Notes: generated by a model from the sequence alone, not told the origin. DNA of 64,000 nt from Rickettsia typhi (GCA_945889175.1 CAMDBF010000003.1:223-64222), one strand, 5' to 3'; positions 10,095-62,013 are shown, numbered from the stretch's first letter. A program made the numbers and translations.

Positions 10095-13000
10095 TTATTT
10101 TAAATAAGATTGCAATTCCAACCAAATACACTCACTTAAATGAGGTAAAAGAGGGGCTACAATTTTACAAAAATTAAAAAGAACAGTGTAAAGTGTATTG
10201 TAAGCGTTTTGTTTGTCGTTATCTTTTTGCGACTTCCAAAACCTATCCTTGTTTCGTCTTATATACCAATTATTTAAGACATCAACAAAAGCGGTAATTT
10301 TTTTACAAGCATCAGGTGTATTGTAGGCGTCCATTGCAAGCCTTACATCGATAGTTAAAAGGCTTAATTTAGACAAAATATAAATATCCATTGCATTGCT
10401 TGATTCAAAACTTTCTTGAGCTTTTATCTCGTCTGCTTTTGAATATATTTTGAAAAAAGTATAAGCATTATTTATTGGCTTTAAAACGAGTCTTGCAACA
10501 TCCTTAATCTCCTGTCCGTTTGCACTAACCAACAAGTCACCACCTTGCATTACAGGACTTGATACAACAAACCACCGCATCGCATCGCTTCCAATTTCGT
10601 CAAAAACTTGCATGGGGTCAGGATAATTCCTTAATCTTTTGGAAAGCTTTTGCCCCTTTGAATCAAGTATAACACCGTGACAAATACAGTTTTTAAATGG
10701 TGCTGTATCAAATAATGCGGTACTTAAAACCATCAAAGTGTAAAACCATCCTCTAGTTTGAGCTGCATACTCAACAATAAAATCTGCAGGATAATTTTTT
10801 GGCTTTAAAAGCGATGGGTCAAGGCTATCTTTGTTAAACGGATAATGCACAGAGGCAAAAGGCATAGATCCAGACTCAAACCAGCAATCAAGAACATCAC
10901 TAACCCTTGAATACTCCTCGTTATCTTTAACAATCTTAATATCGTCAATAAAAGGTCGGTGTAGGTCTTGTATTTTTTGTCCACTCGCTTTTTCAATCTC
11001 TTCAACCGAGCTGAACACTAAAATTTTACCAGTTTTTGATTTCCAAACTGGTATAGGACAGCCCCAATAACGATTGCGACTAATTGACCAATCCCTAGAG
11101 CCCTCAAGCCATTTACCAAACTGCCCATCCCTGATATGCGAAGGTATCCAGTTAATTCCCCTTGGATTATAATGTAAGTAAGATGGTCTGTTTAACTCGT
11201 AGCAATATTCCTCATAATATTTTGTTTTGCTGCCTTTTGGATTTTGCGATATTTTTTTTGCAACAAGGTTAAACCTATGCTTTATTGCAATTTTTTGAGA
11301 AACAACATTATCCGAAATAGTATTAAGGCCAATTTTTTGTATTGGATAGTTACTAAAAGCAAGATTAATAATTTCATCAAGAGCTTCAGTGCAGTAGCCA
11401 TTGCCCTGCATGTTTTTTGAAACCATGTAAGAAACCTCAATTAAACCTTTTTCAAAAGATTCCAAAGCTGGATCGTAAAAACACAGACCAACAAGACCAA
11501 TAAAGCTATCTTTGTTTTGGGGCTTGCCTTTTTGAAACAACATGTAGCGTGGCAAATTGTGCTTTTCGAGTTGAAGATTATAATATATTATAGAATCTTC
11601 AACTTGAGACCTCGTCATTACTTGGTTGTCGGCAAAGTAATAGTATTTTCTTACCTCTTCGTTACCCAAGATGCACTCAAAAAGCAAATCAACATCATCC
11701 ATGCTAACAAGCCTTCCTTCAAGCCTTTGCGTATTAAATCTCAAACCTCTGTTGAGTTCAATCATTCTATTTTTGATTAAAGGATTTGTAACCTCAACAT
11801 ACCAAGAGGAAACGGCTTTATAAATAAGAGGGGTATCCGTTCTCCAGCAATGGGGATAGTTATGGATAATTTGCTCCGTTTTTAACCATGAACCATTTAA
11901 TTTAAGATATCTTATAATATCGTCATTAACACCATCGTAATTTTTTGTACCTTTATCACTAAGGCACTCCTCCAGTACACATCTAGATTTCAGGCGTAAA
12001 GTAAAGTCTGCTATTTTTAAATCTATCAACCTTGAATCATGAAAACACCCAGCATCGTCAATTGGACAAATAACTGATATGCCATTTTTTTCGCATACAA
12101 TCTGATCCTCTTCACCAAAAGCTGGAGCAAGGTGAACTATACCGGTTCCATCTTCGGTAGTAACAAAGTCAGCGGTTAAAACTTTAAAAGCATTTTTAGC
12201 CTCTTCGTCGTTTTTAAAATAAGGGAACAGTGGTTCGTAAGAGCTATTTTCAATATCGGAGCCCTTAAAGGTAAGACTTAAAGGATTAATGCTCTTAAAA
12301 TTTGATGACTCAAGGCTCATTTTTTTATAACTTACTGCCCCTTCTTGAATGATTTTGTCGCTAAAAACAAATCCAAGTTTAGTATAAAATTTTTCAATAG
12401 CAATCCCCCTGGTATCAGAGTTCTCGCCGTAATAAATTAATGGCGATGCCCAAGCTTTAGTAACCCCTTTGCTAAAGTAGAGTTCTAAAATTCCAGATAA
12501 AATTTTAAGCCCAAGTCCAAGACCTCTAAAGCCTTCAATTATTGCAAGGCGAGAAATAGTTATTTCGCTAGCTTCATGTAAAACCCTAATAGTTGCAATC
12601 GCCTGACCGTTGTTGTATATTAGATAATGCTCGTAATCCACATCCGTAACATCCCAAGCAAAGGTTTTATTGAGATTTTTCTCTTTAACAAATACTTCAT
12701 CGCGAATATGTTTTGAGGTATCAAACATTTGATCATTTTCACATTTTTGTATAAAGCTTAAATCAAAACCATCAAGTTCTTTTTTATACTTTGAAATAAG
12801 ATTTTTTGCCAAAATACATTTTTCAGTCGCAGAGCTAAGGCATACATAATCAATATCCTTTCCAACGGCTATAGCAAGATTAGATGGGAGGGTCCAAGGT
12901 GTCGTGGTCCAACCCAGTGCCCTTGCACCAATGTACTTACCGCTTGTTAATATAAATTTTACAGTTGCAGTTTTTGATTGTTTTTCCCTGTAGGCGTTAT

Positions 13001-13598
13001 CAAGTTTTGTTTCAAAGTTTGAAAGAGGCGTTTGACACTTCCATGAGTAAGGCATAACACGGTATTTTTCGTACAAAAAGCCTTTTTTGTGAAGTTCACC
13101 AAAAGCCCAAATCACGGATTCCATGTAAGACTTGTCCATAGTTTTGTAGTCGTCTTTAAAGTCAACCCACCTACCAGATTTTGTAATGTAATCTTGCCAC
13201 TGCTCGGTATATTTCATTACCCCAGTTTTGCAGGCTTGGTTAAAGTTATGTATGCCGTATTTTTCAATAGCAACTTTTCCGCTAATACTTAGTGTTTTTT
13301 CTGTTTCCATTTCAGCTGGTAGCCCGTGGCAGTCCCATCCAAATCGACGCTTAGTTTGATTGCCAAGCATTGTTTGATATCTAGCAAAAATATCTTTAAC
13401 AAAGCTTGTTAAAAGATGACCATAATGTGGCAGTCCATTTGCAAAGGGTGGACCATCATAAAATATAAAATTACCTGTTAAATTAGAATTGTTGACTGAT
13501 TTTTTAAAAATATCGTTCCTTTCCCAATGTCCACGAATTGATTTTTCAATATTGGCAAAATTAAAACTTGAATCATTCATATCTTTTTTAAAAATCAA
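10095..13598 (-). CDS. ileS: isoleucine--tRNA ligase, type 2, carrying two inserted GNAT acetyltransferase domains
   Basis: Motifs in order: HIGH 'PHYGH', 'FGWDCHGLP', editing-domain 'TTTPWTLPSN' and 'GTGIVHLAPAFGEED', 'YPHCWRTDTPL', 'DWSISRNRYWGCPIP', 'DCWFESGSMP' and KMSKS 'KLSKR'. Two GNAT-like segments lie at aa ~275-435 and ~617-814. Confidence 0.9.
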   Translation of the reverse strand: MIFKKDMNDSSFNFANIEKSIRGHWERNDIFKKSVNNSNLTGNFIFYDGPPFANGLPHYGHLLTSFVKDIFARYQTMLGNQTKRRFGWDCHGLPAEMETEKTLSISGKVAIEKYGIHNFNQACKTGVMKYTEQWQDYITKSGRWVDFKDDYKTMDKSYMESVIWAFGELHKKGFLYEKYRVMPYSWKCQTPLSNFETKLDNAYREKQSKTATVKFILTSGKYIGARALGWTTTPWTLPSNLAIAVGKDIDYVCLSSATEKCILAKNLISKYKKELDGFDLSFIQKCENDQMFDTSKHIRDEVFVKEKNLNKTFAWDVTDVDYEHYLIYNNGQAIATIRVLHEASEITISRLAIIEGFRGLGLGLKILSGILELYFSKGVTKAWASPLIYYGENSDTRGIAIEKFYTKLGFVFSDKIIQEGAVSYKKMSLESSNFKSINPLSLTFKGSDIENSSYEPLFPYFKNDEEAKNAFKVLTADFVTTEDGTGIVHLAPAFGEEDQIVCEKNGISVICPIDDAGCFHDSRLIDLKIADFTLRLKSRCVLEECLSDKGTKNYDGVNDDIIRYLKLNGSWLKTEQIIHNYPHCWRTDTPLIYKAVSSWYVEVTNPLIKNRMIELNRGLRFNTQRLEGRLVSMDDVDLLFECILGNEEVRKYYYFADNQVMTRSQVEDSIIYYNLQLEKHNLPRYMLFQKGKPQNKDSFIGLVGLCFYDPALESFEKGLIEVSYMVSKNMQGNGYCTEALDEIINLAFSNYPIQKIGLNTISDNVVSQKIAIKHRFNLVAKKISQNPKGSKTKYYEEYCYELNRPSYLHYNPRGINWIPSHIRDGQFGKWLEGSRDWSISRNRYWGCPIPVWKSKTGKILVFSSVEEIEKASGQKIQDLHRPFIDDIKIVKDNEEYSRVSDVLDCWFESGSMPFASVHYPFNKDSLDPSLLKPKNYPADFIVEYAAQTRGWFYTLMVLSTALFDTAPFKNCICHGVILDSKGQKLSKRLRNYPDPMQVFDEIGSDAMRWFVVSSPVMQGGDLLVSANGQEIKDVARLVLKPINNAYTFFKIYSKADEIKAQESFESSNAMDIYILSKLSLLTIDVRLAMDAYNTPDACKKITAFVDVLNNWYIRRNKDRFWKSQKDNDKQNAYNTLYTVLFNFCKIVAPLLPHLSECIWLELQSYLK

Positions 13599-49262: not shown

Positions 49263-51116
49263 TTGATCTACCAGATCTTATCTATTTTTATTATGGCAGG
49301 AGGAGCACCAGAGCAAGACAAGGTTTTAAGATACTTTAAAAACTTGGTTGTATTAAGTATTTTTTATGGAATAATCCTAGGATTTTTCTATTTTGCAAAC
49401 CTTCTATCAATTATTGCAGTTGTCGAATCCGTCGATAGAGTTATCAGCATCCTGCATTACGACCCTAAATTATATGCTAAACTAGCTATCGAAAGAACTC
49501 TTTACTACTGGTCTTTTTGGTTAAAATACAAAAGTACAATAAATTACTCTTATCATCACTTTTTTGTTATAAAGCTTTTTGCATTAACAATATCGCCTAC
49601 AATTTTATTAATGCTGTACATAAAAACTAAATGGCAAAGCATTAAAGAGTTTGTACCTTATAAGCCAGGGGAGGCTTTACACGGGGATGCCCATTGGGCA
49701 AGTTATTCTGAGATTAAAAAAATCGGTCTCTTTGCTAAGGATGGAATGCTTCTTGGCGAATACAAGCCTTCTAAATATTTTATTATAAAAGACTACCAGC
49801 ATGTACTACTCTTTGCTCCAACTGGATCTGGTAAGGGTGTTGGCTTTGTAATACCAAATCTATTATTTTGGAAAGAGAGCGTACTTGTTCATGATATTAA
49901 ACTTGAAAACTACGAACTTACAAGCGGATATAGATTTAATGTTTTAAAGCAAAAGTGTTACACTTGGGCTCCTGCTGATCCAGAAGGATACTCCCATTGT
50001 TACAATCCACTTGACTGGATAGCAACTCAATCTGGTAAAATGGTAGATGATGTTCAAAAAATTGTAAAAATTGTTATGCCAAAGCAAGAATTTTGGGAAA
50101 ACGAAGCTCGAAGCATGACAGTTGGGGTTATTTTGTTTTTAATAGCCGACGAAACAAAGCCCACAACCTTTGGAGAGGTTGTTAGAACACTAAGAAGTGA
50201 CGATGTAACTCAAACCCTAGCCGTTGCACTTGATACTCTTGGTGACAAGATTCACCCAGTTGGATATATGAATCTTTCTGCTTTTTTACAAAAAGCTGAA
50301 AAGGAAAGATCTGGTGTAATATCTACTGCAAACTCTGGACTTGAGCTTTGGTCAAACCCACTTATCGATAAAACAACATCACGAAGCGACTTTGACATAA
50401 GGCAGTTTAAAAAAGATTTGACAACCGTTTATGTAGGACTAACTCCCGATAACATTGAAAGACTAAGACCTCTAATGTCAATGTTTTACCAGCAGGCGAC
50501 AGCTTTTTTAGCATCTAAAATTCCACAAAAAGATGAACCATATGGCGTTATGTTTATGATGGATGAGTTTCCTACCGTTGGAAAGCTTGAACAATTTTTA
50601 TCTGGTATCGCTTATTTTCGTGGTTACCATGTTAAACTTTTTTTAATCGTACAAGATACTCAGCAATTAAAGGGTACATACGAAGACTCTGGTATGAACT
50701 CATTTTTATCAAACTCTACCTACCGTATAACATTTGCAGCCAATAACATTGAGACGGCAAAGTTAATATCCGAGCTTGTTGGTAACAAAACAGCCGTCTC
50801 AGAATCAATGAACAAGCCAAAGTTTTTAGATCTGAACCCTGGTAGTAGATCAGTCCACATGTCTCATACCCAAAGAGCTCTGCTTTTACCGCAGGAGGTT
50901 ATAGGATTGCCAAAAACAGATCAAATTATTCTTATCGAGGCATCACCACCAATAAGATGTAAAAAAATTAGATACTTTAAAGATAAATTTTTTACAAGGA
51001 AACTTCAAAAACCAATACCAATTCCAAAACAAAAACCTTATACTCCAAAAAGACAGACTCCAAAGCCACAAAATTCAGAATCAAATGCAACATCTTCCAA
51101 TGCGGCTAACAATTAA
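49263..51116 (+). CDS. virD4: type IV secretion coupling protein VirD4/TraG
   Basis: N-terminal TMs, Walker A 'FAPTGSGKGVGFVIPN', 'MFMMDEFPTVG' (Walker B) and 'FLIVQD'. The start is TTG 49263 or ATG 49293. Confidence 0.85.
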   Translation: MIYQILSIFIMAGGAPEQDKVLRYFKNLVVLSIFYGIILGFFYFANLLSIIAVVESVDRVISILHYDPKLYAKLAIERTLYYWSFWLKYKSTINYSYHHFFVIKLFALTISPTILLMLYIKTKWQSIKEFVPYKPGEALHGDAHWASYSEIKKIGLFAKDGMLLGEYKPSKYFIIKDYQHVLLFAPTGSGKGVGFVIPNLLFWKESVLVHDIKLENYELTSGYRFNVLKQKCYTWAPADPEGYSHCYNPLDWIATQSGKMVDDVQKIVKIVMPKQEFWENEARSMTVGVILFLIADETKPTTFGEVVRTLRSDDVTQTLAVALDTLGDKIHPVGYMNLSAFLQKAEKERSGVISTANSGLELWSNPLIDKTTSRSDFDIRQFKKDLTTVYVGLTPDNIERLRPLMSMFYQQATAFLASKIPQKDEPYGVMFMMDEFPTVGKLEQFLSGIAYFRGYHVKLFLIVQDTQQLKGTYEDSGMNSFLSNSTYRITFAANNIETAKLISELVGNKTAVSESMNKPKFLDLNPGSRSVHMSHTQRALLLPQEVIGLPKTDQIILIEASPPIRCKKIRYFKDKFFTRKLQKPIPIPKQKPYTPKRQTPKPQNSESNATSSNAANN

Positions 51117-52000: not shown

Positions 52001-54082
52001 ATGCTTGTAAAACATATATCGCTGAGCAAGTTGATTAAAAATATCACAAAGAAAACATATTATTACACATCAGTAAAATTAAAAGCCTTTTCGTTAATTG
52101 AAGTTGCAATTGCAATTGTACTTGTTGGCATAGTAACATTCCCTCTTATATCTATTACAACTGGCTTTTTAGAGAGGGCAAAGATAGAAAAGACAAACAA
52201 ATCGATAGCCGTCATTAAGGAGTCTTTGGTTTCATATTTTTTAATGAATAAAGCTCTACCCTGCCCAGCCGATCCAACTCTCAATCCAAATAACCCAAAC
52301 TATGGCAGCTCGCAATCTTCTTGTTCTTCAATTAAAGGAACCGTTATAGGTTCGCTACCAGTTGACGCTCTTGGACTTAGTAGAGATTTTATACTTGATG
52401 GTTACGGTCGTAAATTTGCTTATGCCGTTCCAAGCTTTTTAACAACATCAGGAAATGTGCGTTTTTATAAAGATAGAGCAGAAAAAACAATCATTGCATA
52501 TGATGGAAAGGAGCAACTATCTGCTGACAAACAAATTACACTAAATTCATCGGGCGGTACATTAATTGCAAGCGATGTATTTTTTATCATTAATAGTTAT
52601 GGCAAGGATGGGGTTGGTGCCTATCTTGAAAACGGCTCCAGACTTAAAACAACCAACATAAATGCCTCTGTTACCGCCGGAATGGCGTCTTACACAAGCT
52701 CCTTTACCTTGTTTTCAAAAAACGATATCACTGGAGATGATGTTCTGCAATATGGATCGTTTAAATCTATATTAAGCCTATTGCAAGACTACGGGTATGT
52801 AGAATGTCAAGATATAAAAGGTAACAACTCAAGCTTTACGGATATAAACTCTTTTACCTTTCCAAAAACTTCGGCAAATACAACAATAACTGCTAGTGCA
52901 TTAAGTTGTCCAAACGGTACAGCTTTACTTCAAACACCCACTGCAACTTGCTCGTCAAGCGGAGACTGGATAAACTTCAAACCTCAAGAATGTGGGTATT
53001 ATAATAAAGATGTTATTTACGGAACTATTACCTTTGGCGATGTTGGTACCGCAAGTGGTGCAGTTACTTCAACTGGACCAATACTCGCTGCTATCAAAAC
53101 ATTAGATGTCACAGGAGCAACAGCTATAGAAGTTTTAGTCGATAACCTAGGCGGAACCGACTACAGGGTTCAGGCTACATTAAAATCGAACGATGCTAAG
53201 GATGTAAACACTGTAAGCACGCCAGTTATCAAAATTATCGATAGCAGTAAGTTTCATATCCTATTAAAGGACATAGGAATTGCAACTCAAGATCCAAGCT
53301 TTGGAGTATCACTTGTTATAACAAGTCCTTTAAAAGCATCTAACCAACTAGATGCAACATTATATCCTGGCATGCCTCTTTGTACAATAGTAGCTCTGTA
53401 TTCAGAAACGATACCAGATGGATGGAAGCTTTGCGACGGAAAAAACTTGACGACAACTGATACGTGTGATAAGAATTTACAAACATACTGCGGACTTACA
53501 TCTACCGCACCAGACTTGAGAGGTCTTTTTTTAAGAGGTCTTGACAAAGGAAGAGGCATGGATCCAGAGTATTCAACCTCAAGATACAATCCACTAGATT
53601 CAGTCGCCAAAACAAGTGTTACAAAAACAACCACATCAAATGCAATAGGCAGTATACAAGATGAAGCTATTATAGCCCACGCCCACTCCCTTGCAGCAGT
53701 AAAAGCAACCCTAAAAGGAACTGCAACAACAACCATAACTCCACCTGCAACTGGAAATGTTTTACTCTCTGGGACGAGTACAAATGCAATCCTTATCTCT
53801 ACAACTACAACTGCACCTACTGGAACTAGCAGGCTCTTCCAGTTGCCAGGTAACACGCCAGCCTTAGCTGTTGCAGGTCTTAGTGCCTTAAGCTGGCCAG
53901 CCGTTACAAATATTACTGGCATCACTGTTAGTGTTACAGCACCTTCCGTAGTGGGATCAATAGACACTTCATCCGAACAAGACGCAACTACCAGCGGAGA
54001 TATCACAACCGAGACAGCGATGGCAACCAACGAGGTAAGACCTAAAAATATTGCGGTAAATTACATTATAAGATGCAAGTAA
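52001..54082 (+). CDS. chimeric surface protein: prepilin-type N-terminus and pilin-like domain fused to a phage tail-collar/tail-fibre-tip-like C-terminal domain
   Basis: 'KAFSLIEVAIAIVLVGIV' is near-consensus for the N-methylation site (Ala at -1, Glu at +5) and is followed by the pseudopilin-like 'LPCPAD...GSLPVDALGL...DGYGRKFAY'. The C-terminus has 'IPDGWKLCDG...APDLRGLFLRGLD.GRG.D...QDEAIIAHAH...NEVRPKNIAVNYIIR'. Confidence 0.6.
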   Translation: MLVKHISLSKLIKNITKKTYYYTSVKLKAFSLIEVAIAIVLVGIVTFPLISITTGFLERAKIEKTNKSIAVIKESLVSYFLMNKALPCPADPTLNPNNPNYGSSQSSCSSIKGTVIGSLPVDALGLSRDFILDGYGRKFAYAVPSFLTTSGNVRFYKDRAEKTIIAYDGKEQLSADKQITLNSSGGTLIASDVFFIINSYGKDGVGAYLENGSRLKTTNINASVTAGMASYTSSFTLFSKNDITGDDVLQYGSFKSILSLLQDYGYVECQDIKGNNSSFTDINSFTFPKTSANTTITASALSCPNGTALLQTPTATCSSSGDWINFKPQECGYYNKDVIYGTITFGDVGTASGAVTSTGPILAAIKTLDVTGATAIEVLVDNLGGTDYRVQATLKSNDAKDVNTVSTPVIKIIDSSKFHILLKDIGIATQDPSFGVSLVITSPLKASNQLDATLYPGMPLCTIVALYSETIPDGWKLCDGKNLTTTDTCDKNLQTYCGLTSTAPDLRGLFLRGLDKGRGMDPEYSTSRYNPLDSVAKTSVTKTTTSNAIGSIQDEAIIAHAHSLAAVKATLKGTATTTITPPATGNVLLSGTSTNAILISTTTTAPTGTSRLFQLPGNTPALAVAGLSALSWPAVTNITGITVSVTAPSVVGSIDTSSEQDATTSGDITTETAMATNEVRPKNIAVNYIIRCK

Positions 54083-57517: not shown

Positions 57518-60010
57518 ATGTTTAATGGACTTAGTCTTAACAGGCATAAATCAAAAAAAAGAGGGGTAGCTAAATACGAATACTCAACTTCAAACTTCAT
57601 ACCATACTCCCGACATTACAACGGTAAAACTATAGTTACAAAGGACGGTGAACTTATAAGTGTTATAAAAGTATCTGGCTTTTCTTTTGAAACTGCCGAT
57701 GACGATGACCTAAATTTAAAAAAAGACGCAAGAAACAACTTATTAAAAGGCTTTGCAACGGGTCAGTTTGGAGTGTACTTTCATACTATACGAAAAAAAC
57801 ATCAGGCCTATCCAGATGGTAAATTTAGCGACTTAATTTGCAAAGGTATAGACGACGAATGGAGACTGAGGCATGAAAAAGATTATACATTTATCAACGA
57901 GCATTACATTACAATACTACGAAAGAGTAATAAAATTGAAGAGGGCTTTGCTAAGCTATCTAAAAAAATTGCAAGTCGCAAACGCAAAAATAACGATGCA
58001 CTTGACGATGACGAGATAGATGAGGAGGTTCAAAAAGAATTAGCTAAAGTGGAAGAAGAAATATTAAAAGAAAACCACTCTCAACTTGAAGAGGTAAGGG
58101 ACAGAATCTACAATTCACTTTCGGGTTATCAGCCTGAAATACTTGAGGCAAAAAAAACAAGTGATGGCTTTTACTGCCCAATGCTGGAATTTTTATCTAG
58201 CATATCAAATTGCTGTCAGGTGCAAAAGGTTTTGGTTCCCAATATTTCACTAGATAAATACTTGCAAAGAGTAAGGCTTTATTTTAGTGGCAAAACTGGT
58301 GAATTTATAGCGCCAACTGGCGAGAAAAAATACTTTGCAATGGTTAGTTTAAAGGACTATAGAAATACCACGCATGCTGGACTTATGGATTCTTTTTTGC
58401 AGCTTCCATTTGAATTTGTAATTTCACAATCTTACTTCTTTATAGATAAGATGATTGCAGTCAACAAGCTACAATTACAACAAAGAAGACTTATACAATC
58501 AGAGGATGTTGCCATCTCTCAAATTGCCGAAATTAACGAGGCCTTGGACTCTTCAATGTCAGGTAGATTTGCTTTTGGTAATCACCACATGACAGTTATG
58601 TGCATAGGTGACAGCATAAAGGAGCTTGATTCAAATGTATCGCAAACGGTTGTGGAATTTTCGAGCGTTGGTATTAATGCAACGAGGGAAAGATTTAACT
58701 TAGAGCCAGCATTTTGGTCTCAGCTACCAGGTAACCAGTCTTTTATAGGTCGTAAGTCAATTATAAACAGTATGAATGTAGCATCCCTTGCTTCGCTACA
58801 CAATCATCCATCGGGCAAGCGAAAAGGCAACCATTGGGGCGATGCGGTTACGGTTTTTAATACAACATCTGGTACCCCTTATTTTTTTAGCTTTCATGTA
58901 AGAGATGTTGGGCATACAATGATAGTTGGTCCAACTGGTGCCGGTAAAACGGTTTTAATGAATTTTTTATGTGCTCAGGCACAAAAATTTAATCCAAAAA
59001 TATTTTTCTTCGATAAGGACAGAGGTGCCGAGATATTTGTAAGGGCAATAGGTGGTAAATATATTTATCCATCAGCATCCGAATATTCTGGCTTTAACCC
59101 ATTGCAACTTGCCGATACTTATGATAATAGAATTTTTCTTGAAGGATGGTTTGTTGCAATGCTAACATCGGCAGGCGAAAGTCTTGCCGCAGAGGATTAT
59201 GCAATTATCAAACAGGCAGTAGATGGCAACTACAAACTACCAAGAGATCAAAGATGTATATCCAATGTGTCAGCTTTTTTTGGAATGGAAAAAGTTGGTA
59301 GCCTTGCAAACAGACTTGCAAGATGGCACGGACAGGGCTCAAAAGCAAAACTTTTTGACAATCCTGAGGATAGCATTGATTTTTCCCATGGAAGAGTCTT
59401 TGGCTTTGAGATGGGTGATTTACTTAAGGATAAAATATCGCTACCAGCAACCCTTGAATATCTTTTTCACAGAATATCAGGCTCGCTTGATGGTAGTCCA
59501 ACAATGATAGTTTTAGACGAGGCTTGGGCATTGATAGATAACCCTGTTTTTGGACCTAAAATTAAGGATTGGCTCAAGGTATTGCGTAAGTTAAATGCTA
59601 TGGTTGTTTTTGCAACCCAATCAGTTGAAGATGCTACAAAAAGTAACATAAGCGACACATTGGTTCAGCAAACAGCAACTCAAATATTTTTACCAAATCT
59701 TAAGGCAACAGAAGAATACAAAAGAACCTTTATGCTAACCGATAGAGAGTTTAATCTTGTTAAAACAACCGACCCCGGAACAAGGTTTTTTTTAGTAAAA
59801 CAAGATAGCAACGCAGTAATTACAAGAATTAGCCTTGCCGGCATGGACGATATTATATCAATACTCTCAGGAAGAGTTGAGACCGTTGACCTCTTGGATA
59901 AAATTAGAGCAAAAGTGGGCGACGACCCATCCGCTTGGCTACCAATTTTTCTTGATACACTTCATCAGGAGAAGCTAAAGAAAAAATCAGAAAAATCAAC
60001 CGATGTGTAG
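57518..60010 (+). CDS. virB4: type IV secretion ATPase VirB4
   Basis: N-terminal 'FIPYSRHYNGKTIVTKDGELISVIKVSGF', Walker A 'GPTGAGKTV', 'MIVLDEAW' and 'VFATQS'. No virB3 lies upstream and no virB6 downstream. Confidence 0.9.
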   Translation: MFNGLSLNRHKSKKRGVAKYEYSTSNFIPYSRHYNGKTIVTKDGELISVIKVSGFSFETADDDDLNLKKDARNNLLKGFATGQFGVYFHTIRKKHQAYPDGKFSDLICKGIDDEWRLRHEKDYTFINEHYITILRKSNKIEEGFAKLSKKIASRKRKNNDALDDDEIDEEVQKELAKVEEEILKENHSQLEEVRDRIYNSLSGYQPEILEAKKTSDGFYCPMLEFLSSISNCCQVQKVLVPNISLDKYLQRVRLYFSGKTGEFIAPTGEKKYFAMVSLKDYRNTTHAGLMDSFLQLPFEFVISQSYFFIDKMIAVNKLQLQQRRLIQSEDVAISQIAEINEALDSSMSGRFAFGNHHMTVMCIGDSIKELDSNVSQTVVEFSSVGINATRERFNLEPAFWSQLPGNQSFIGRKSIINSMNVASLASLHNHPSGKRKGNHWGDAVTVFNTTSGTPYFFSFHVRDVGHTMIVGPTGAGKTVLMNFLCAQAQKFNPKIFFFDKDRGAEIFVRAIGGKYIYPSASEYSGFNPLQLADTYDNRIFLEGWFVAMLTSAGESLAAEDYAIIKQAVDGNYKLPRDQRCISNVSAFFGMEKVGSLANRLARWHGQGSKAKLFDNPEDSIDFSHGRVFGFEMGDLLKDKISLPATLEYLFHRISGSLDGSPTMIVLDEAWALIDNPVFGPKIKDWLKVLRKLNAMVVFATQSVEDATKSNISDTLVQQTATQIFLPNLKATEEYKRTFMLTDREFNLVKTTDPGTRFFLVKQDSNAVITRISLAGMDDIISILSGRVETVDLLDKIRAKVGDDPSAWLPIFLDTLHQEKLKKKSEKSTDV

Positions 60011-60191: not shown

Positions 60192-61142
60192 ATGAACAAA
60201 ATGCTACAAAAACAAAAATTCAACACCAGCGTTTTACTTGGATTGCCAAGACGATTCTTTTCGTATATTCGTGCCGAGAATTACGATATTGACGATTCGA
60301 AAAAGATTTTACAAACTCAACATCACAGCCTAAGTATCGTTCCTTTAATGGAAAATAATACAAGTCATTACAATCTTTATAAACACATCATTACAAAGGT
60401 TGGAGTTTTTAACACTTCAAGTTGGATAATGGGTGCTTTTGGCAAAGATGTATTAAATATTAAAGACCAAAAAAAAGCAGATGAATTTTTTAAAAGCCAA
60501 GAACATATTATTTTGCAGCAGTACAAAGCACTCACAAAATACAATGTAAGCCATCAAGCTGGATACTATACTATTATTAAAGATGGAACTATAGTTGGAG
60601 GTTCTGGACTTATTCCAGTCGGGATTAACCAAACAGTAAATAAAGTTTATTCTTGCGATTTAGCCCTTCATATATTGCCAGATTTTCAAAAAAATGGCTA
60701 TGGCAAGGATCTAACTTTATCATTTTTAACCTTTGGATTCGATAGTGAAAAAGGACTTGATTTACAAACCATTGTTGGAACTTCTTTAAAATCAAACTAC
60801 GGAACCTCAAATCTTTGTCAGCAATTTGGAATGGTTATAAAAAGCAAGGAGGATTTAAAGTATTACTATATAAATAGAAAAATGTGGGATATTTTTATAA
60901 ACAACAAAGACAATCAAGAAAAGACAGCCCTTGGCAATGTTTTTTTAAACAATAAAGAAGAATCAAAGCAAGGCGAAATGCTAAAACTAGATTTTAATCC
61001 ACAATCAGACTCCGCCTCGAATATTGGAATTAATACCTCAGATATTAGAATTGAGTTTAAGCGCGAAGATGAAAATATTGAAAAAACCCTTATTTCTCAA
61101 TCGAAAGATCCTTCAAAACAAGATCAATTAATCTTTCGCTAA
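60192..61142 (+). CDS. GNAT (RimJ/RimL-like) acetyltransferase-domain protein with a C-terminal extension
   Basis: 'LSIVPLMENNTSHYNLYKHI' and the acetyl-CoA motif 'LPDFQKNGYGKDLTLSFLTFGF', then 'SNLCQQFGM'. About 80 aa of low-complexity tail follow. The 3' end overlaps the convergent LysR gene by 53 nt. Confidence 0.55.
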   Translation: MNKMLQKQKFNTSVLLGLPRRFFSYIRAENYDIDDSKKILQTQHHSLSIVPLMENNTSHYNLYKHIITKVGVFNTSSWIMGAFGKDVLNIKDQKKADEFFKSQEHIILQQYKALTKYNVSHQAGYYTIIKDGTIVGGSGLIPVGINQTVNKVYSCDLALHILPDFQKNGYGKDLTLSFLTFGFDSEKGLDLQTIVGTSLKSNYGTSNLCQQFGMVIKSKEDLKYYYINRKMWDIFINNKDNQEKTALGNVFLNNKEESKQGEMLKLDFNPQSDSASNIGINTSDIRIEFKREDENIEKTLISQSKDPSKQDQLIFR

Positions 61143-62013
61143 TGCCTTTTATCATTTCGCCCTTTCTTACTAAAAAACAATATTTTATAGAAGGCGACAA
61201 ATGGTAGACTTTTCTTACATCAATATTTTCATCTTGCACGACATAACTCTCGTGCATAATGGTTACACCCAAACCTTGTTTTACAAGTTCTTTTAAAATT
61301 TCCCAATTACCATTTTCAATTATTATGTCACTTTTAAGTGTACCATGAGATACTCTGTCTTTTTGTATTTGCGAAATTGCATAATTTGCAGTGTGTAAAT
61401 AATTGTATTGAGAAATATCTGCAAATCTAATTTCATTATCTTTGTACTTAGACAAAGGATGCTCTTTTGGCATAATACACACCGGTCTATAAGGCATGGC
61501 TTCGATAACTTTTACATCATGAGGAATATTTTCACCAGATTCAATTGGATACATTGCAAAATCAATCTCGTGTTTTGTTAGTTTTTGTAAAGCCTCTTCT
61601 TTTGTTATGTATAAAAGCTCTATTGTAGGTTGATTAAATTCTTTGTATATCTTTTTAAGATATTTGGGTAATATCAAGCTAAATACCGAATGATGACCCG
61701 CTATAGAAACATATCTGTTTTTTCGCTCTTGCAATTTATCATTAAATTTTTCGTACAAAGATTCTATGGCGTTAAAAGCAGGTAAGGCATGTCTGTAAAA
61801 TTGCAAACCTTTTTTAGTCAACTCCATTGAATCTTTTTTGTAAAAAAACAACTCAAACCCCAAATCTCTCTCAAGTGTACTAATTTGCTTTGAAACCGAA
61901 GATGGACTTAAATTTATACTTTTAGCTCCCGATGTAACTCCGCCGCTTCTAACAGTTGCAAAAAAACCCCTAAGCTGTTGAAGTCTATTGTTTTTGTAGA
62001 TAAAACTTTGCAT
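61090..62013 (-). CDS. LysR-family transcriptional regulator
   Basis: N-terminal wHTH 'LQQLRGFFATVRSGGVTSGAKSINLSPSSVSKQISTLERDLGFELF' followed by a LysR substrate-binding-type domain. Confidence 0.85.
   Translation of the reverse strand: MQSFIYKNNRLQQLRGFFATVRSGGVTSGAKSINLSPSSVSKQISTLERDLGFELFFYKKDSMELTKKGLQFYRHALPAFNAIESLYEKFNDKLQERKNRYVSIAGHHSVFSLILPKYLKKIYKEFNQPTIELLYITKEEALQKLTKHEIDFAMYPIESGENIPHDVKVIEAMPYRPVCIMPKEHPLSKYKDNEIRFADISQYNYLHTANYAISQIQKDRVSHGTLKSDIIIENGNWEILKELVKQGLGVTIMHESYVVQDENIDVRKVYHLSPSIKYCFLVRKGEMIKGISERLIDLVLKDLSIEK

Follow-up and report, generated by a model that had tools for sequence, protein, structure and literature searches.

A stretch of 64,000 nucleotides deposited under Rickettsia typhi (GCA_945889175.1 CAMDBF010000003.1:223-64222; the window) contains a gene, ileS, for an isoleucyl-tRNA synthetase (IleRS) in which two acetyltransferase domains of the GNAT fold are nested, one in the editing domain of connective peptide 1 (CP1) and one in the CP2 hairpin. 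We read them as complete acyl-coenzyme A (acyl-CoA) N-acyltransferase modules that were inserted long ago into permissive surface loops of a housekeeping IleRS, and we favor the acetylation of a small aminoacyl-type ligand as their activity; the probability we give to this reading as a whole is about one in three (0.35). Both modules are likely to have retained acyl-CoA binding and catalysis: motif A is present in both, a Tyr residue is invariant in the first domain (GNAT1), a Ser and a Glu residue are invariant in the second (GNAT2), and both are under purifying selection.

The open reading frame (ORF) spans 10095..13598 on the minus strand, as do the coordinates of all features of this gene given below, and its 1167 codons are without interruption. 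The 1167-aa product scores as an IleRS (TIGR00392, 814.9 bits against a cutoff of 621.4), and its Pfam matches include tRNA-synt_1 (E = 2e-125) and Anticodon_1. The TIGR00392 score, the class I signatures, the editing motifs, and the closest structures together place it among the type-2 (eukaryote-like) IleRS. In an alignment of 84 homologues, the HIGH signature (HYGH, aa 58-61, 13416..13427) has invariant H58, G60, and H61, with Y59 conserved in at least 90% of the sequences, and the KMSKS signature (KLSKR, aa 984-988, 10635..10649) is invariant. In the same alignment, 9 of the 11 positions of the Thr-rich editing-site motif WTTTPWTLPSN (aa 230-240, 12879..12911) are invariant and the other 2 are conserved at 90% or more; the second editing-site motif, GTGIVHLAPAFGEED (aa 484-498, 12105..12149), contains the invariant residues G484, T485, G486, V488, H489, and D498. 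The HIGH, KMSKS, Thr-rich, and GTGxVH..D motifs are thus invariant or at least 90% conserved in homologues with or without inserts, and the GNATs therefore do not replace editing. A full-length AlphaFold2 (AF2) model built from the 84-sequence alignment had a mean predicted local distance difference test score (pLDDT) of 84.2 and a predicted TM-score (pTM) of 0.74, and the type-2 IleRS of yeast, Candida, and P. megaterium ranked top when this model was searched with Foldseek. The protein is of the short form: its C terminus (10095-10200) comes directly after the anticodon-binding helical domain, and the PF19302 domain of longer type-2 IleRS is missing, as it is from the ~820-aa IleRS relatives.

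The boundaries of the inserts were set by alignment with three insert-free homologues of ~810 aa (P0047, P0048, and P0053). Where insert 1 (aa ~274-442, 12273..12779) stands, these proteins have a linker of just 8 residues that joins "KYKE" to "TIKG", and at the same point yeast IleRS has only ~9 extra residues. Because this insert is flanked by WTTTPWTLPSN upstream and GTGIVHLAPAFGEED downstream, it lies inside the CP1 editing domain. A first-pass annotation of the window had reported a GNAT of about 155 aa inserted in this domain at 12294-12776 (aa 275-435), quoted the motifs RGLGLG and FYTKLGF from it, and described the gene as a domain fusion rather than a disruption. The continuous frame, the intact HIGH, KMSKS, and editing motifs, and the profile and structure-prediction results below bear out each of these statements. 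Its account of a single domain was incomplete: the span it gave is the first of two GNAT regions, and it missed both the second GNAT, of another family, in CP2 and the recurrence of the pattern across an IleRS clade.

The GNAT1 fold covers aa 281-432 (12303..12758). Over aa ~303-430, it exceeds the Pfam gathering scores of Acetyltransf_1 (49.4 bits against 20.7, E = 6e-13) and Acetyltransf_7 (31.5 against 27), with Acetyltransf_10 below threshold. Modeled alone with AF2, the domain had a pLDDT of 92.6 and a pTM of 0.87, and its secondary structure followed the canonical GNAT order (b1-a1-a2-b2-b3-b4-a3-b5-a4-b6-b7), the same elements being present in the full-length model. A Foldseek search of the PDB gave 602 matches at E <= 0.001; the top 50 listed were all GNAT acetyltransferases, the best being SACOL1063 with CoA (E = 1.6e-12, TM-score 0.78/0.87), and YjcF, CBU0801, a Lactobacillus GNAT, and ElaA were also among the best. 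In a sequence search of the PDB, the matches included SACOL1063 (2e-9), YjcF (5e-5), and ElaA (3e-4), so that GNAT1 is best described as a divergent ElaA/YjcF/SACOL1063-like domain.

This SACOL1063/YjcF/ElaA/PA0115 (COG2153-like) group supplied the best matches of GNAT1 by sequence (E = 2e-9 to 8e-3) and by structure (target-normalized TM-score 0.73-0.87), and it has the signatures IR..VF, R..G.G, and FY..GF in common with GNAT1. Its members, by contrast, are free-standing proteins of ~145 aa, with 18-24% identity to GNAT1 in structural alignments. The best NCBIfam GNAT match of GNAT1, the ElaA/YjcF-type model NF007644/PRK10314, was still far below its cutoff (30.3 bits against 171). Motif A of GNAT1, RGLGLG (aa 358-363, 12510..12527), fits the pattern R/Q-x-x-G-x-G/A and is the predicted acyl-CoA pyrophosphate-binding loop; at least 90% of 20 aligned sequences, embedded and free-standing, have the residues R358 and G361 (R78 and G81 in domain numbering). 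When the eleven IleRS-embedded domains were aligned with free-standing relatives, R58, R70, F124, Y125, and G129 (domain numbering) were invariant and motif A was near-invariant, and the last three of these residues fall in FYTKLGF (aa 404-410, 12369..12389).

The GNAT1 of the window belongs to a subtype that departs from the ElaA/YjcF signature (VF..EQ, K-I-E-R, H-x-K-M). It has EK for EQ, ISR for IER (T-I-S-R), and Tyr for the C-terminal His (Y-K-K-M), together with an 11-residue loop, "PLIY.GE....R". This subfamily-specific extra loop (PLIYYGENSDTRG, aa 386-398, 12405..12443) was modeled with lower confidence (pLDDT 70-76), and the residues ASPLIY within it are invariant in the four sequences of the subtype. 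These are the window protein, P0002 (a 69% identical protein from another sample in which both inserts are present), P0004, and the second copy in P0003; the other IleRS-embedded GNAT1s retain the canonical ElaA-like residues. Since P0003 has a canonical GNAT1 and a subtype copy in tandem at the CP1 site, its sequence suggests that the subtype arose by duplication. The subtype is rare: a scan of Joint Genome Institute (JGI) metagenomes gave three loci, of which one is of the P0002 lineage and the other two show 56% identity, one of this pair being on a contig equal in length to that of P0004. Against 1.84 billion representative proteins, the only strong match of GNAT1 was the protein itself, and the remaining matches were mostly free-standing GNATs of ~145 aa with ~30% identity. 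Elsewhere in CP1, the window protein has an additional segment of 13 residues relative to the insert-free homologues (ECLSDKGTKNYDG, aa ~543-555, ~11934-11972), which several GNAT-bearing relatives share.

Insert 2 (aa 618-812, 11163..11747) lies between the antiparallel CP2 helices H606-617 and H820-832 according to both the alignment and the AF2 model, and it stands opposite nothing in P0047, P0048, and P0053. Its placement in CP2, as defined for the C. albicans IleRS (PMC7191050), was anchored on the conserved CP-core Arg (CWRTD, R586). The GNAT2 fold covers aa 626-803 (11190..11723) and is of the Acetyltransf_3 (RimJ/RimL/PA3944-like) family, with a PF13302 score of 56 bits against 25.4 over aa 627-776 and the canonical order of GNAT secondary-structure elements in the full-length model. 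A family profile made from twenty domains at this CP2 site matched 3FBU (1.8e-11) and PA3944 (1.4e-10), then YdaF, a RimL-like protein, and RimJ, down to 5e-8, and SpeG as well. MccE (3R95) came 26th (E = 0.0035), with a match over the C-terminal half of the domain only, and the nucleobase-binding region fell outside the aligned stretch.

The residues expected of a catalytic Acetyltransf_3 domain are present in GNAT2. In SDNVVSQK (aa 762-769, 11292..11315), an Asn and a Ser are invariant, and the profile alignment pairs this Ser (S767) with S148 of PA3944, which is catalytically essential and equivalent to S141 of RimL and S553 of MccE (PMC8072286). The beta4 strand IEVSY, which together with motif A (QGNGYCTE) covers aa 720-738 (11385..11441), contains an invariant Glu that corresponds to E102 of PA3944. 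The family also has invariant motifs of its own, LPR[FY] and [YN]PK, which are not found in the reference structures. By its PF13302 score, GNAT2 falls in the group of PA3944, RimL, RimJ, YdaF, and MccE2, whose members have as acetylation targets the primary amines on peptides and on aminoacyl-nucleotides (PMC8072286, PMC8323819); those enzymes are free-standing, whereas GNAT2 is embedded in CP2 of an aminoacyl-tRNA synthetase (aaRS). Searching for homologues with the GNAT2 profile yielded only free-standing GNATs of 165-322 aa and missed embedded ones already known, which makes this search uninformative on other hosts. Within the window, no second copy of GNAT1 or GNAT2 was found beyond a 316-aa ORF (60192-61142, plus strand) with a weak Acetyltransf_3-like region that is below the Pfam threshold (22.1 bits against 25.4) and scores E = 1.8e-7 against a hidden Markov model of the GNAT2 family. 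This ORF adjoins a divergent LysR-type regulator at 61090-62013.

GNAT-bearing IleRS, with one to five copies each, account for 62 of 132 retrieved relatives, a set ranked by similarity to the query in which GNAT-bearing proteins are consequently over-represented. The GNATs belong to two families and occupy three recurrent loops and one N-terminal site (numbered in P0048 coordinates). Site A (~300-310, CP1) holds ElaA-like GNATs in the eleven non-redundant proteins aligned and a RimL-like GNAT in one protein; site B (~395, CP1) holds either RimL-like GNATs or DUF559/Vsr-like endonucleases; site C (~465, CP2), the commonest, holds RimL-like GNATs; and the N-terminal site holds a copy in one protein. 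The extremes are P0003 (1567 aa) with five GNATs and P0010 (1528 aa) with four. A separate contig scan, made with peptide patterns that proved uninformative, recovered only two Bacteriovoracaceae IleRS, and the one examined (L001) is without a GNAT.

The inserts have diverged together with their hosts. The GNAT domains group by insertion site, and GNAT architecture tracks the host clades in a tree made from host-core columns only. Pairwise identity of the GNATs rises and falls with that of the core (r = 0.67-0.95, 45-666 pairs), and the divergence of the GNATs is about twofold faster. Between the window protein and P0002, amino acid identity is 75-81% in the core, 54% in GNAT1, and 48% in GNAT2, and the nonsynonymous divergence (dN) is 0.16-0.19, 0.31-0.38, and 0.51, respectively; the synonymous divergence (dS) is at least 1.2-1.5 and saturated. 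In the core regions, dS is saturated or could not be defined, which leaves upper bounds and the relative dN as the usable values. The inserts have the same GC content as the rest of the gene, and no meaningful direct or inverted repeats flank their borders. A recent insertion with a mobile-element footprint was rejected on these two grounds. On this comparative evidence, the inserts are old, have been inherited vertically with the synthetase, and are under purifying selection. Several independent acquisitions and some apparent losses are indicated, the number of events being uncertain because the neighbor-joining trees are crude.

Three of the relatives carry inserts of a different kind. DUF559/Vsr-like endonucleases are present in frame at site B of P0014 (aa ~436-587), P0032 (~383-554), and P0109 (~426-578), flanked by the repeat-encoded peptides SPL.GEG.GVRG and TPHPNPLP.GEG, and P0109 has a solo repeat (aa ~290-335) at site A, the site of GNAT1. 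From their sequences, these inserts look like selfish DNA inserted in frame.

An IleRS with an embedded GNAT is already catalogued. The first-pass annotation knew of no described aaRS of this kind; this agrees with our search of the literature, in which we found no publication on a GNAT-embedded IleRS or on NF040702, and is incorrect for the databases, since NCBIfam contains NF040702, "ileS_w_GNAT" (isoleucine--tRNA ligase, N-acetyltransferase domain-containing), and JGI labels several of the relatives "isoleucyl-tRNA synthetase/predicted acetyltransferase". A 2026 preprint on the domain architectures of 96,219 IleRS sequences contains neither the word GNAT nor acetyltransferase. Residues 227-519 of the window protein, which include the Thr-rich motif, GNAT1, and GTGIVH, align colinearly with positions 242-540 of NF040702, whereas TIGR00392, the ordinary IleRS model, places the flanks of insert 1 next to each other; the editing domain of NF040702 is therefore longer by ~170 positions at the corresponding point, a GNAT-sized insertion between the Thr-rich and GTGxVH motifs. 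Over the whole protein, the window IleRS reaches only 280.6 bits against the NF040702 cutoff of 1999, and eight relatives reach 253-325 bits, so that none is a member. Isolated GNAT1 domains gave no match to NF040702 at E <= 1, and a model of 1100 positions cannot hold a second GNAT in CP2. Judged by these scores, the window protein represents a lineage distant from NF040702, probably with a GNAT that was independently acquired or has strongly diverged. The architecture is thus catalogued in databases and apparently unstudied, with the window protein as a distant, two-GNAT variant of it.

As to what the domains do, we tentatively propose, by analogy, that the acceptor of the GNATs is a small ligand of the aminoacyl type, acetylated at its free alpha-amino group as it binds or leaves IleRS. 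Candidate ligands would be a mimic of isoleucyl-adenylate, a toxic or non-cognate amino acid, or the adenylate of such an amino acid. Once acetylated, the ligand could no longer occupy the synthetic site. The drug target would in this way carry its own means of resistance or of "chemical proofreading", analogous to what free-standing MccE2, RimL, and TfxH do for other aaRS inhibitors. A small ligand is favored because enzymes related to GNAT2 acetylate primary amines on peptides and on aminoacyl-nucleotides and because there are precedents in MccE2 (PMC8323819) and TfxH (bioRxiv 10.64898/2025.12.02.691738), free-standing GNATs that neutralize aaRS inhibitors by acetylation of an alpha-amine. 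The recurrence of the pattern (two families, three loops, one to five copies, 62 of 132 proteins) implies that a GNAT on IleRS has been favored repeatedly, and selection accounts more easily than chance for the fact that different GNATs were recruited again and again to a single drug target. A bolder form of this proposal, which we regard as rather unlikely, is that a clade of Rickettsiales-like bacteria repeatedly recruited acyl-CoA transferases to loops near the IleRS active sites, where they would N-acetylate isoleucyl-adenylate mimics, toxic isoleucine analogues, or mis-activated amino acids on the very enzyme that such compounds would poison.

Several observations weigh against our proposal. 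The GNAT1 subtype has replaced residues that are otherwise conserved in ElaA-like GNATs (EQ to EK, IER to ISR, His to Tyr), so its function could have changed or its activity could have been lost. The resemblance of GNAT1 to SACOL1063, YjcF, and ElaA gives no function, as the literature on these proteins yielded no reported substrate. GNAT2 is nearer to PA3944, 3FBU, YdaF, and RimJ than to MccE, and PADLOC returned no defence-system match. In the crude neighbor-joining tree, GNAT-less IleRS of ~820 aa are nested among GNAT-bearing ones, and the GNATs therefore appear dispensable for aminoacylation. Finally, the same loops accept selfish inserts, and permissiveness alone therefore explains part of the pattern.

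The dispensability of the GNATs for catalysis per se is also what would be expected of a regulator. The domains could act as a built-in lysine acetyltransferase, directed at lysines of IleRS (such as those within or around KMSKS) or of a bound partner, or as an allosteric sensor of acetyl-CoA, either of which would couple the charging of tRNA-Ile to the metabolic state of an intracellular bacterium. Lysine acetylation has been reported to modulate several bacterial aaRS. The CoA-binding motifs are intact, and tethering would present the enzyme's own surface lysines at a very high local concentration. We nevertheless consider this explanation doubtful, since neither GNAT specifically resembles a known protein lysine acetyltransferase and up to five GNATs of two families would be odd for such a role.

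An explanation that we hold to be equally doubtful is that the domains are largely neutral passengers, GNAT genes captured in permissive loops of an essential gene in intracellular bacteria with small populations, with an activity unrelated to IleRS. Such passengers could persist because they fold autonomously and because precise excision is rare. Their roughly twofold faster evolution than the core, the apparent losses, and the variation from 0 to 5 copies are as this explanation would predict, and sites A and B demonstrably take other material, namely the DUF559/Vsr-like elements or solo repeat of P0014, P0032, and P0109. Rickettsia palindromic elements are in-frame selfish insertions in essential genes, and the DUF559/Vsr-like elements occupy the same IleRS loops (A and B) in the same kind of Rickettsiales-like host. 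The GNAT inserts differ from selfish elements in having no endonuclease, flanking repeats, or compositional signature and in co-diverging with the host. In addition, the catalytic and CoA-binding residues are invariant across hosts whose cores are just 55-65% identical, dN lies well below the saturated dS, none of the 62 GNAT-bearing proteins shows decay, truncation, or stop codons in its GNATs, and there is no mobility footprint around the inserts of the window.

The first-pass annotation had drawn an analogy to ItaT, from which it would follow that the CP1 GNAT N-acetylates Ile- or Val-tRNA-Ile visiting the editing site, as ItaT, AtaT, or TacT would, to give a product barred from elongation. 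This chemistry is established for free-standing GNAT toxins (PMC7367177, PMC7595197), which have the GNAT fold in common with GNAT1, and the substrate proposed is chemically what IleRS makes; insert 1, moreover, sits within the domain to which the aminoacylated 3' end is delivered. The analogy found no specific support in the comparison, and we consider this activity improbable, although the more general chemistry of the proposal, N-acetylation of an aminoacyl compound, may still apply. The nearest relatives of GNAT1 are of the ElaA/YjcF/SACOL1063 type, and no aminoacyl-tRNA-acetylating toxin, including ItaT, AtaT, and TacT, appeared among its PDB sequence matches at E <= 1 or its top 50 Foldseek matches, so that an ItaT-like assignment was rejected. 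Each of these toxins is a small, free-standing protein with an antitoxin partner, and no antitoxin gene is evident next to ileS among the neighbors TerC, KdtA, NuoJ, SdhC, a 138-aa ORF, and IspA. Constitutive acetylation of its own product would be self-poisoning in an apparent housekeeping ileS, and full conservation of the hydrolytic editing site leaves no need for a substitute.

An assembly or annotation artefact, in which a chimeric contig joins ileS to unrelated GNAT genes, has nothing in its favor beyond the metagenomic origin of the data and is excluded for practical purposes by four contigs that encode the identical IleRS protein (two of them, from the independently assembled sources ENA ERZ27280300 and Logan ERR5863109, have like neighbors), by the same architecture in the 69% identical P0002 and other loci (among them metagenome contig L006, a near-identical variant of P0002 with GNAT1 at the matching position), by the uniform GC content, and by two in-frame junctions inside one confidently folded model.

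A covalent union of an aaRS with a transferase has a known counterpart in mycobacterial LysX, a LysRS fused to an MprF-type aminoacyl-lipid synthase. As in the GNAT-bearing IleRS, the joined transferase could use or modify what the synthetase handles. The two differ in construction: LysX is an end-to-end fusion whose transferase uses aminoacyl-tRNA, whereas the GNAT modules are nested in CP1 and CP2 and retain an acyl-CoA-binding loop.

The start of ileS can be placed at TTG 13598, as in the ORF listed here, or six codons downstream at ATG 13580, as in the database gene call (P0001, 1161 aa). TTG 13598 is three bases past the end (13601) of the upstream TerC ORF. NuoJ, KdtA, and TerC are encoded upstream of ileS and SdhC, an unnamed 138-aa ORF, IspA, and MurC downstream, and this ileS looks like the housekeeping copy. 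Elsewhere, the window contains type IV secretion genes for a VirD4-like coupling protein and a VirB4-like ATPase (49263-51116 and 57518-60010, both on the plus strand) and encodes SecA, UvrD, DnaK, GroEL, and EptA-like genes at ~33% GC, a set consistent with a Rickettsiales-like intracellular bacterium, as are the names borne by related proteins. Two large ORFs on the plus strand, of 681 aa (25942-27987) and 693 aa (52001-54082), are without a Pfam match at E <= 1e-5.

The aaRS are textbook examples of enzymes that gain functions through appended domains, and most of the additions described are eukaryotic and terminal. In the present case, complete, motif-intact GNATs are nested in the editing domain and CP2 hairpin of a bacterial class I synthetase, within a clade in which this has come about several times. 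To synthetase specialists, the interest of this IleRS lies in the nesting of the domains, in the presence of a second GNAT, and in the recurrence of multi-copy forms. Even as passengers, the GNATs would show, through the three loops that recur, where IleRS tolerates a whole inserted domain, which is of use in engineering; as regulators, they would link charging directly to acetyl-CoA. Mupirocin and several natural products have IleRS as their target. An action of the GNATs on IleRS ligands would constitute a new form of antibiotic-target protection or a second, chemical layer of quality control, and if the clade did recruit them to inactivate such ligands on the enzyme itself, an arms race with natural IleRS inhibitors would be recorded in the copy number of 0 to 5 and in the recruitment from two GNAT families.

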